Program-made: the position numbers and the translations under genes
NCBI RefSeq assembly: GCF_003334785.1
Contig: NZ_QOWV01000009.1
DNA length: 64,000 nt
Direction: 5' to 3' (one strand)
DNA from: Escherichia coli
GTDB taxonomy: Bacteria > Pseudomonadota > Gammaproteobacteria > Enterobacterales > Enterobacteriaceae
Notes under the pieces: generated by a model
The model's input: only the letters and a program-made list of their open reading frames with translations
What the model was told of the DNA's origin: nothing
Databases searched by the model: none
In this document: positions 56,650-57,846 of the stretch, one piece after another
How the letters are laid out: each line of letters starts with the position of its first letter
How positions within the stretch are numbered: position 1 is the stretch's first letter

Positions 56650-57846
56650 ATGAAAACCTGGATATTTATCTGTATGTCCATAGCAATGTTGCTATGGTTT
56701 TTAAGTACGCTAAGACGTAAACCCAGTCAAAAGAAAGGCTGTATTGACGCCATTATACCTGCGTATAACGAAGGCCCGTGTCTGGCGCAGTCACTGGATA
56801 ATCTACTGCGTAACCCTTATTTTTGCCGGGTAATTTGCGTTAACGACGGCTCCACGGACAATACCGAAGCGGTCATGGCGGAAGTCAAACGCAAATGGGG
56901 CGACCGCTTTGTTGCCGTCACGCAAAAAAATACCGGTAAAGGTGGTGCGCTGATGAATGGCCTCAATTACGCCACCTGCGACCAGGTTTTTTTAAGTGAT
57001 GCCGACACCTATGTTCCGCCCGATCAAGACGGAATGGGCTATATGCTGGCAGAAATTGAGCGCGGTGCCGATGCCGTAGGCGGCATTCCCTCTACTGCGT
57101 TGAAAGGCGCGGGTCTGTTACCGCACATCCGCGCGACCGTAAAGTTGCCGATGATTGTTATGAAGCGCACGCTACAGCAGCTCCTGGGTGGCGCACCGTT
57201 TATTATCAGCGGTGCCTGCGGGATGTTCCGTACTGATGTATTGCGTAAGTTCGGTTTCTCGGATCGTACTAAAGTCGAAGACCTTGATCTCACCTGGACA
57301 TTGGTGGCAAACGGCTACCGTATTCGGCAGGCGAATCGCTGCATCGTATACCCACAGGAATGCAACAGCCCGCGTGAGGAGTGGCGTCGCTGGCGGCGTT
57401 GGATTGTGGGATACGCGGTCTGTATGCGCCTGCATAAAAGACTTTTATTTAGCCGCTTCGGTATCTTCAGTATATTTCCTATGCTGTTGGTTGTGCTTTA
57501 TGGCGTTGGGATTTATCTCACTACCTGGTTTAATGAATTCATCACCACCGGGCCGCATGGAGTGGTGTTGGCAATGTTTCCGCTTATCTGGGTCGGCGTA
57601 GTTTGTGTTATTGGTGCTTTTAGCGCCTGGTTTCATCGTTGCTGGTTGTTGGTGCCTTTAGCGCCGCTTTCCGTTGTGTATGTATTATTAGCTTATGCCA
57701 TCTGGATTATTTATGGACTTATTGCCTTTTTTACTGGACGCGAACCTCAGCGCGACAAACCCACCCGCTATTCCGCACTGGTGGAAGCGTCAACCGCTTA
57801 TTCCCAACCTTCTGTCACAGGAACTGAAAAACTATCTGAAGCTTAA
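56650..57846 (+). CDS. yaiP: GT2-family glycosyltransferase YaiP, processive synthase-like
   Basis: 398-aa ORF: N-terminal TM helix, GT-A domain (IIPAYNE, NDGSTD, DAD in LSDADTY, ED in VEDLD, EWRRWRRW resembling the QxxRW motif), then about 3 C-terminal TM helices, the architecture of NodC/PgaC/BcsA-type synthases. Confidence 0.88.
   Translation: MKTWIFICMSIAMLLWFLSTLRRKPSQKKGCIDAIIPAYNEGPCLAQSLDNLLRNPYFCRVICVNDGSTDNTEAVMAEVKRKWGDRFVAVTQKNTGKGGALMNGLNYATCDQVFLSDADTYVPPDQDGMGYMLAEIERGADAVGGIPSTALKGAGLLPHIRATVKLPMIVMKRTLQQLLGGAPFIISGACGMFRTDVLRKFGFSDRTKVEDLDLTWTLVANGYRIRQANRCIVYPQECNSPREEWRRWRRWIVGYAVCMRLHKRLLFSRFGIFSIFPMLLVVLYGVGIYLTTWFNEFITTGPHGVVLAMFPLIWVGVVCVIGAFSAWFHRCWLLVPLAPLSVVYVLLAYAIWIIYGLIAFFTGREPQRDKPTRYSALVEASTAYSQPSVTGTEKLSEA

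Follow-up and report, generated by a model that had tools for sequence, protein, structure and literature searches.

Organization of the yaiP/yaiX/yaiO operon

We analyzed a 64,000-nucleotide (nt) stretch of Escherichia coli DNA (contig NZ_QOWV01000009.1 of assembly GCF_003334785.1), here called the window, with respect to the translation start of yaiX, a gene for a hexapeptide-repeat protein whose open reading frame runs back into the end of the glycosyltransferase gene yaiP. Four same-strand genes are clustered in 55969-59180, and frmR and frmA lie downstream. The genes and frames on which the argument depends are the following.

55969-56640, plus strand: gene for a PIG-L family deacetylase, the first gene of the yaiP/yaiX/yaiO operon.
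56650-57846, plus strand: yaiP, encoding a PgaC/IcaA-like GT2 membrane glycosyltransferase of 398 amino acids (aa); TAA stop at 57844-57846.
57692-58405, plus strand: open reading frame of yaiX, a hexapeptide-repeat (LbH) protein, in the +1 frame relative to yaiP; TAA stop at 58403-58405.
57713-58405, plus strand: proposed yaiX coding sequence of 230 aa, starting at ATG 57713 as in MG1655 b4579.
57713-57846, plus strand: proposed out-of-frame overlap of yaiP and yaiX, 134 nt, with yaiX in the +1 frame relative to yaiP.
58407-59180, plus strand: yaiO, encoding an outer-membrane beta-barrel (TIGR04390, 182 bits), the last gene of the operon.

The yaiX stop codon is separated from the yaiO start by 1 nt. 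YaiP gave a TIGR03937-like match in NCBIfam with a score under the curated cutoff. The assignment of YaiX to the hexapeptide-repeat (LbH) acyltransferases is borne out by precomputed Pfam matches (PF00132, PF25087, and PF25084) and by an AlphaFold2 model of the 230-aa protein, in which regular short strands have a predicted local distance difference test (pLDDT) score of >90 over residues 50-150; the mean pLDDT of the model is 82, and the LbH domain is modeled with confidence. YaiX resembles the GlmU C-terminal-like LbH acetyltransferases of exopolysaccharide operons in having hexapeptide/LbH Pfam domains, and its operon likewise codes for a PgaC-like GT2 synthase, a PIG-L deacetylase, and an outer-membrane barrel. 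Unlike GlmU-type proteins, however, YaiX consists of the LbH domain alone together with a family-specific N-terminal 'MWW' segment, and it reached no curated NCBIfam cutoff: the GlmU-type matches were limited to the C-terminal LbH part and fell below their cutoffs.

The yaiX gene is intact in the window, and the K-12 copy is interrupted by IS2 near 57990. Repair of the K-12 yaiX' was reported to result in a clumping phenotype that depends on yaiP (EcoGene 3.0, PMC3531124), which indicates that intact yaiX is functional. The '71-amino-acid YaiX' of the W3110 ASKA clone, the subject of a 2026 paper (PMC13058169), is a fragment of the IS2-disrupted pseudogene, and the overexpression phenotypes described for this 71-aa fragment may not correspond to those of the intact 230-aa YaiX.

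Starts assigned to yaiX in public annotation

A preliminary description of this DNA had reported that the hexapeptide-repeat frame stays open through the end of yaiP, and the coordinates and frames that it gave for the two genes were confirmed here, as was the arithmetic of the 152-nt overlap (57695-57846) that follows from the first in-frame ATG. It was also correct that the only in-frame ATGs upstream of the repeat domain, 57695 and 57713, both lie inside yaiP (an in-frame TTG at 57722 falls outside that claim, which concerned ATGs) and that no canonical in-frame start occurs from the yaiP stop until GTG 57965, which is within the beta-helix/LbH domain. The region of the yaiP stop, without a canonical start, is identical in five diverse E. 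coli strains, and the conflict between public annotations of yaiX arises because E. coli has no canonical start after this stop. MG1655 b4579 is annotated from ATG 57713. The Prokaryotic Genome Annotation Pipeline (PGAP) places three different starts on near-identical E. coli yaiX sequences, two of which are CTG and all of which lie downstream of a Trp-Trp motif at 57779-57784.

57824-57826, plus strand: CTG, the PGAP start of the 193-aa protein WP_024183734, with AGGA just 1 nt upstream.
57812-57814, plus strand: CTG, the PGAP start in CFT073, 197 aa.
57881-57883, plus strand: GTA in the window and GTG in B2 strains, where it is the PGAP start of a 174-aa form.

These PGAP forms make up large protein clusters (1845 members at 193 aa and 1174 members at 174 aa). 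The start at CTG 57824 is probably a truncated annotation.

Homology of yaiX reaches into the 3' end of yaiP

A protein search with the whole 236-codon yaiX open reading frame returned 526 relatives, and a distant BLAST for diverged E. coli paralogues gave 11 records at 60-80% identity. DNA was assembled for 15 genome loci and for 11 further loci obtained via exact-protein look-up. Loci of the enterobacterial type came from E. coli, E. whittamii, several Citrobacter, Superficieibacter, an Ignatzschineria metagenome-assembled genome, Salmonella, a Yersinia-labelled assembly, and Enterobacter, and loci of the ancestral type (L011-L014 and L017-L019) came from Pseudomonas viridiflava, Acinetobacter, sphingomonads, and other proteobacterial assemblies.

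Distant homologues of ~206 aa begin with 'MWW(R/S)EL', which aligned to the E. coli His-Trp-Trp at 57776-57784, and in an alignment of 61 homologues the two tryptophans (W23 and W24 of YaiX) were nearly invariant. The homology of yaiX extends about 70 nt into yaiP, which argues against a start at or after the yaiP stop. Further, because two candidate-phyla-radiation loci retain (M/V)WW though yaiP is not upstream of them, the motif appears to be a real feature of the protein and not a by-product of the overlap.

In the ancestral-type loci, YaiP ends with '...RDKPTRY-x-x-V-V-x*', and yaiX starts with ATG or GTG followed by TGG TGG, exactly 14 nt ahead of the yaiP stop. The Arg of the YaiP 'TRY/ERY' motif is AGA in the Acinetobacter locus (L019) and, in the other six loci, AGG, a codon that E. 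coli rarely uses. From this Arg codon arises a GAGGT or AAGGT 6 nt upstream of the yaiX start. The computed anti-Shine-Dalgarno duplex is -2.9 kcal/mol in the AT-rich Acinetobacter locus and lies between -4 and -7.3 kcal/mol in the remaining six. Apparently, then, the AGG of YaiP builds the yaiX Shine-Dalgarno sequence in loci of this type, and the choice of the codon seems dictated by the downstream gene. The arrangement, found in L011-L014 and L017-L019, fits the translationally coupled short-overlap junctions (ATGA-type or ~14 nt), with a GAGGT Shine-Dalgarno sequence inside the upstream gene. The E. coli junction, in contrast, has neither this Shine-Dalgarno sequence nor the start nor the stop, and the classical geometry is gone, the proposed start in the window lying 134 nt before the yaiP stop. 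The features of the E. coli junction are the following.

57776-57784, plus strand: ancestral start position, now CAC (His), followed by TGG TGG at 57779-57784.
57787-57846, plus strand: C-terminal tail of YaiP, 19 codons and the stop, past the ancestral stop and overprinted on the old N-terminal coding sequence of yaiX.
57770-57772, plus strand: in-frame ATT (Ile), a rival near-cognate start; ATG at this place in some relatives (MPWW, MLPWW, MPPRWW).

In the enterobacterial loci, the YaiP Arg codon is CGC, CGT, or CGA, with which the Shine-Dalgarno sequence is gone; the ancestral ATG is replaced by CAC (E. coli), CCT, CGG, or others; and the yaiP stop is lost, so that YaiP runs 19 residues further, to 57846. 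At 57770, 2-3 codons before the two tryptophans, the codon formed by the YaiP Tyr TAT and the next base is ATT in nine, ATA in four, and ATG in two of the 15 loci that have this YaiP tail, and L020 and L021, whose tail is short, also have ATG at the equivalent position. Enterobacter sp. PGRG2 (L023) has both the YaiP tail and an ATG at the 57770 position, i.e. a 77-nt overlap with a canonical start, which by its sequence would make it an intermediate between the ancestral and the derived junction.

L020 and L021 (Salmonella and Enterobacter bugandensis), together with L022, belong to a second enterobacterial operon variant, with a short YaiP of 381-385 aa and with ATG or TTG 2-3 codons ahead of the tryptophans (MPWW; TTG-TTC-GCA-WW). 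In these three loci gene callers extend yaiX to an upstream ATG that comes from the YaiP Tyr/His-Gly codons, and the resulting called overlaps of 83-95 nt are probably over-extended.

Selection changes frame within the overlap

The check that the preliminary description had proposed, an alignment of orthologues combined with an inspection of synonymous sites in yaiP, was carried out, and it revealed yaiX-frame conservation within the yaiP 3' end and a trough of synonymous variation. Variation was expressed as the mean pairwise difference at each yaiX codon position among 12 enterobacterial loci. Over 57776-57844, the values for positions 1, 2, and 3 were 0.28, 0.32, and 0.55, highest at yaiX position 3 (position 1 of yaiP), and the pairwise nonsynonymous difference in the yaiP frame was about 0.7, i.e. 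the YaiP tail is free. The LbH domain has the profile of ordinary yaiX coding sequence (0.26, 0.16, and 0.58). The yaiX-type pattern of 57776-57844 shows that the protein from the Trp-Trp segment onward is translated in the yaiX frame, and because this stretch is constrained as yaiX and holds the Trp-Trp motif, the translation start must be upstream of 57779.

Directly upstream, over 57743-57775, the values were 0.07, 0.50, and 0.20, with the peak at the third position of yaiP, and the frame under selection changes from yaiP to yaiX at the ancestral junction, 57776. Further upstream still, over 57713-57741, all three positions were constrained (0.12, 0.11, and 0.17). The part of the overlap ahead of the ancestral junction consists of two stretches.

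57703-57744, plus strand: doubly constrained block, with a Shine-Dalgarno-like GGA (57704-57706), an AU-rich spacer, ATG 57713, and the first ten yaiX codons, M-D-L-L-P-F-L-L-D-A.
57745-57775, plus strand: stretch constrained in yaiP only; YaiP reads ...EPQRDKPTRYSA, and the yaiX reading NLSATNPPAIP is a variable linker.

A doubly constrained block surrounds ATG 57713

Synonymous variation of yaiP was scanned in 394 sliding windows of 13 codons over the whole gene and had its global minimum, 0.109, at 57703-57741, compared with a mean of 0.53 and a standard deviation of 0.117. When codons with a pairwise synonymous difference of <=0.18 were taken as low in variation, eight of the nine conserved degenerate yaiP codons in 57706-57744 were of this kind and the ninth stood at 0.1818, compared with 5.8% of 226 such codons elsewhere (approximate P values: binomial, about 1e-9; Mann-Whitney, 6e-7). 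The same yaiP codons vary freely in the ancestral-type loci.

ATG 57713 is invariant in all 15 enterobacterial loci, each of which also has TGG(A/G) 6 nt upstream of it. Codon 2 of yaiX is Asp or Glu throughout, and codons 3 and 4 are always Leu, encoded by TTA/CTA/CTG/TTG and by TTG/TTA/CTG, respectively; the YaiP residues over these two codons change (L/F/P/I and I/V/A/T). Substitutions that are silent in yaiX and replace residues in yaiP are a signature of translation in the yaiX frame, and within the block they preserve YaiX M-(D/E)-L-L-P-F-L-L-(D/E) at the cost of YaiP residues. The two genes thus present what characterizes a dual-coding pair: both frames are intact in 15/15 loci, that of yaiX from the ATG as far as the LbH domain and that of yaiP up to its stop; selection acts on the yaiX frame inside the overlap, as seen in the pattern of 57776-57844 and in the changes at yaiX codons 2-4; and yaiP, the upstream gene, shows reduced synonymous variation, with its minimum at 57703-57741. 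We did not use the open yaiX frame between the ATG and the tryptophans as a main argument, as it is weakly informative: with YaiP as it is, only its Leu-Ile and Ile-Ala codon pairs can yield stops there.

In four loci (L008, L010, L027, and L028) yaiX-frame stops lie 1-5 codons upstream of ATG 57713. Given these stops, and given that ATG 57695 occurs in Escherichia-like loci only, the 5' boundary of the yaiX frame is ATG 57713. The site is almost free of structure, with a folding energy of 60 nt that averaged -4.2 kcal/mol at ATG 57713 versus -11.4 kcal/mol at the ATT/ATA/ATG site. In E. coli its anti-Shine-Dalgarno duplex was -3.1 kcal/mol versus -1.9 kcal/mol at yaiP's own start.

Two other causes of the conserved block were considered and rejected. 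An internal sigma-70 promoter was excluded because no sigma-70-like promoter sites were found in 57500-58000, and a known RNA element or structure because Rfam gave no match at E up to 1 and RNAalifold gave a consensus of only -1.84 kcal/mol with negligible covariation. TTG 57722 was likewise discarded as a yaiX start, its codon being TTG, TTA, or CTG across the loci.

Alternative starts and mechanisms

We first weighed the near-cognate ATT at 57770, two codons ahead of His-Trp-Trp, from which yaiX would encode about 211 aa with a 77-nt overlap. Such a start would be near the ancestral one, its product would match the ancestral ~206 aa in length, relatives have ATG at the aligned position (L009, MPPRWW; L023, MLPWW; L020/L021, MPWW), and no yaiX-frame constraint was seen at 57743-57775. 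We nevertheless consider it very unlikely. ATA and ATT are very poor initiators, and ATG is restricted to two of the 15 tail-bearing loci; in E. coli the site has no Shine-Dalgarno sequence (+0.4 kcal/mol) and strong structure (-16.8 kcal/mol per 60 nt); and a start here leaves the block 57703-57744, with its yaiX-synonymous and yaiP-nonsynonymous changes, unexplained. Initiation at AUU is known from infC and pcnB, with which yaiX shares an in-frame ATT both at 57770 (ATG in relatives) and at 57863, past the yaiP stop. Unlike in infC and pcnB, however, neither ATT of yaiX is conserved (ATT/ATA/ATG at 57770 among the loci; ATT/GTT at 57863 within E. coli), 57770 is without a Shine-Dalgarno sequence, and a conserved canonical ATG lies upstream.

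Even less likely is ATG 57695 as the start, or as an extra start, in Escherichia (236 aa, 152-nt overlap). This ATG is in frame and is present in E. coli, E. whittamii, and L032, but it is absent in Citrobacter, Superficieibacter, and others, some of which have yaiX-frame stops between 57695 and 57713, and the yaiP synonymous sites at 57695-57705 vary normally. The preliminary description had seen no obvious Shine-Dalgarno sequence at either ATG; this holds for 57695 (-1.6 kcal/mol) but not entirely for 57713, where the GGA at 57704-57706 stands 6 nt upstream. A real overlap, one of the possibilities that it had offered, is supported by our results, although with the second ATG as the start (134 nt) and not the first (152 nt).

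A non-canonical start further downstream (CTG 57824, CTG 57812, or ATT 57863), with a product of 174-197 aa and little or no overlap, is in our view less likely again, in spite of being the RefSeq/PGAP annotation in thousands of E. coli genomes (clusters P0008 and P0017) and of an AAGAG 6 nt upstream of ATT 57863 (-2.9 kcal/mol). Against these starts, 57776-57844 is under purifying selection in the yaiX frame and bears the family-wide tryptophans; the AGGA is only 1 nt from CTG 57824; and PGAP chooses three starts for what is essentially one sequence. The idea that translation begins at an ATT shortly past the yaiP stop is not supported, in view of the same selection and of ATT 57863 being GTT in B2 strains.

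Least likely of all is a YaiP-YaiX fusion or +1 shift (e.g. at T6, 57728-57733), or else long-range reinitiation after the yaiP stop: both frames are open for 134-152 nt, the T6 run lies inside the conserved block, and the ancestral junction is clearly coupled, but T6, the sole homopolymer, is TTTGTT in E. whittamii (L005) and TTTTTC in L023, constraint on the yaiX frame starts exactly at the invariant ATG and is present at codons 2-4, upstream of the run, neither a stimulatory or conserved RNA structure (consensus -1.84 kcal/mol) nor an Rfam element was detected, and we know of no precedent for reinitiation 134 nt upstream of a stop. The earlier suggestion that the N-terminus is made by coupling or frameshift from yaiP thus finds no support.

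An ATG at 57846 that overlaps the yaiP stop (TAATG, in the third frame) and the A5 run that follows it were considered as signs of a homopolymer frameshift or a pseudogene and were rejected, since this ATG fits the frame of neither gene and other genera do not conserve it. It opens a 12-codon open reading frame at 57846-57884, MLKRKIFRLQTR, which B2 E. coli retains with a single change and which is probably due to chance.

Proposed origin of the overlap

Overall, with a probability of roughly 0.8, the comparison of loci points to translation of yaiX from ATG 57713 inside yaiP, giving a protein of 230 aa and 134 nt shared by the two genes, after the ancestral start was lost in the enterobacterial lineage. 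The predicted N-terminus of YaiX is (f)MDLLPFLLDANL....

Several observations weigh against this conclusion. The Shine-Dalgarno sequence of ATG 57713 is weak (-3.1 kcal/mol). The ATG is forced by the conserved (Y/H)G of YaiP whenever the first of these codons ends in T, which makes its presence alone weak evidence, and an equivalent ATG also occurs in some ancestral-type loci (L013 and L014). L009, L023, and L020/L021 also have an ATG 2-3 codons ahead of the tryptophans, and two starts could coexist. The conservation of the block could in part reflect a need of the initiation region at the nucleotide level rather than the peptide, and the P values given above are approximate because the loci are phylogenetically related. 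The AlphaFold2 model has a pLDDT of <50 for YaiX residues 1-21, so that no fold backs a role of the extension (residues 22-50, which include the two tryptophans, have a pLDDT of 65-85); the model is neutral on what the 21 residues do. Finally, our literature search found no start-site profiling or N-terminal proteomics of YaiX, and the papers that name yaiP or yaiX are silent on its start.

The comparison of loci also shows how the overlap arose. The ancestral state was a coupled 14-nt junction, with the yaiX start behind a GAGGT provided by the AGG of the '...KPTRY' motif. The enterobacterial lineage then lost the Shine-Dalgarno sequence (AGG to CGC/CGT), the start codon, and the yaiP stop, and loss of the stop let YaiP read 19 residues over sequence that was formerly yaiX only. 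Initiation most likely shifted 21 codons upstream, onto a pre-existing ATG; the ATG was already present because the conserved Tyr/His-Gly of YaiP is encoded by (T/C)AT-GGN. We infer that ribosomes load de novo at this weak-Shine-Dalgarno (GGA), AU-rich, and unstructured site, and that the 21-residue extension combines a short selected peptide with a free linker to the old N-terminus. The conservation of MDLLPFLLD may reflect a function of the peptide or a requirement of the initiation region. We are evenly divided on the more specific idea that the first nine residues, M-(D/E)-L-L-P-F-L-L-(D/E), are a peptide that arose de novo, overprinted on the yaiP frame once the ancestral coupled start had gone, and that they are now selected more strongly than the YaiP residues over them, e.g. 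for docking to the membrane or to YaiP.

Bacterial genes usually overlap by 1-4 nt, and most annotated overlaps as long as 134 nt are mispredictions. The judgment of the preliminary description that the layout is unusual was fair for an out-of-frame overlap of 134 nt, although the curated K-12 annotation already has this start. As in other same-strand overlaps that originate from the loss of starts and stops, the upstream stop and the downstream start have been lost here, with mutual extension of the two genes and a synonymous dip. Unlike in typical cases, however, the overlap measures 134 nt, and the ancestral (14-nt), intermediate (77-nt, L023), and derived states are all found in living genomes. 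If the proposed history is true, the surviving 14-nt and 77-nt stages would let one trace, in natural genomes, how a migrating start codon produced 134 nt of dual-coding sequence, and the locus would provide a clean case, open to checking, of the way in which long same-strand overlaps originate, by loss of the Shine-Dalgarno sequence, start, and stop and then capture of an ATG from upstream Tyr-Gly codons. The yaiP/yaiX overlap adds a well-supported case to a type of feature that is already known; its general interest is modest, and its practical value lies in annotation. The curated K-12 start of yaiX appears correct, and the 193-, 197-, and 174-aa forms of YaiX that PGAP assigns across thousands of E. 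coli genomes, which disagree with one another and omit the Trp-Trp motif, are probably missing the true N-terminus. On the same reading, constructs for the repair or expression of yaiX from the yaiS-yaiP-yaiX-yaiO exopolysaccharide/clumping operon would need 134 nt of yaiP, and mutations at the yaiP 3' end would affect two proteins.

Other features of the window

Over the 3' end of the PIG-L gene, a 39-codon antisense open reading frame (56506-56625, minus strand) corresponds to the RefSeq small protein YkiC, which is annotated in strain 167 and in L033. Downstream of yaiO, a perfect inverted repeat with arms of 19 nt, ATATACTATAGGGGGGTAT / ATACCCCCCTATAGTATAT, and a 15-nt spacer is located at 59291-59343, directly upstream of frmR; it looks like a putative FrmR operator. 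A C8 run lies close to this repeat, at about 59229. Rfam matches to naRNA4 (CssrE) above the gathering score were found at 30602-30681 (minus strand), 61781-61858 (minus strand), and 63887-63962 (plus strand).

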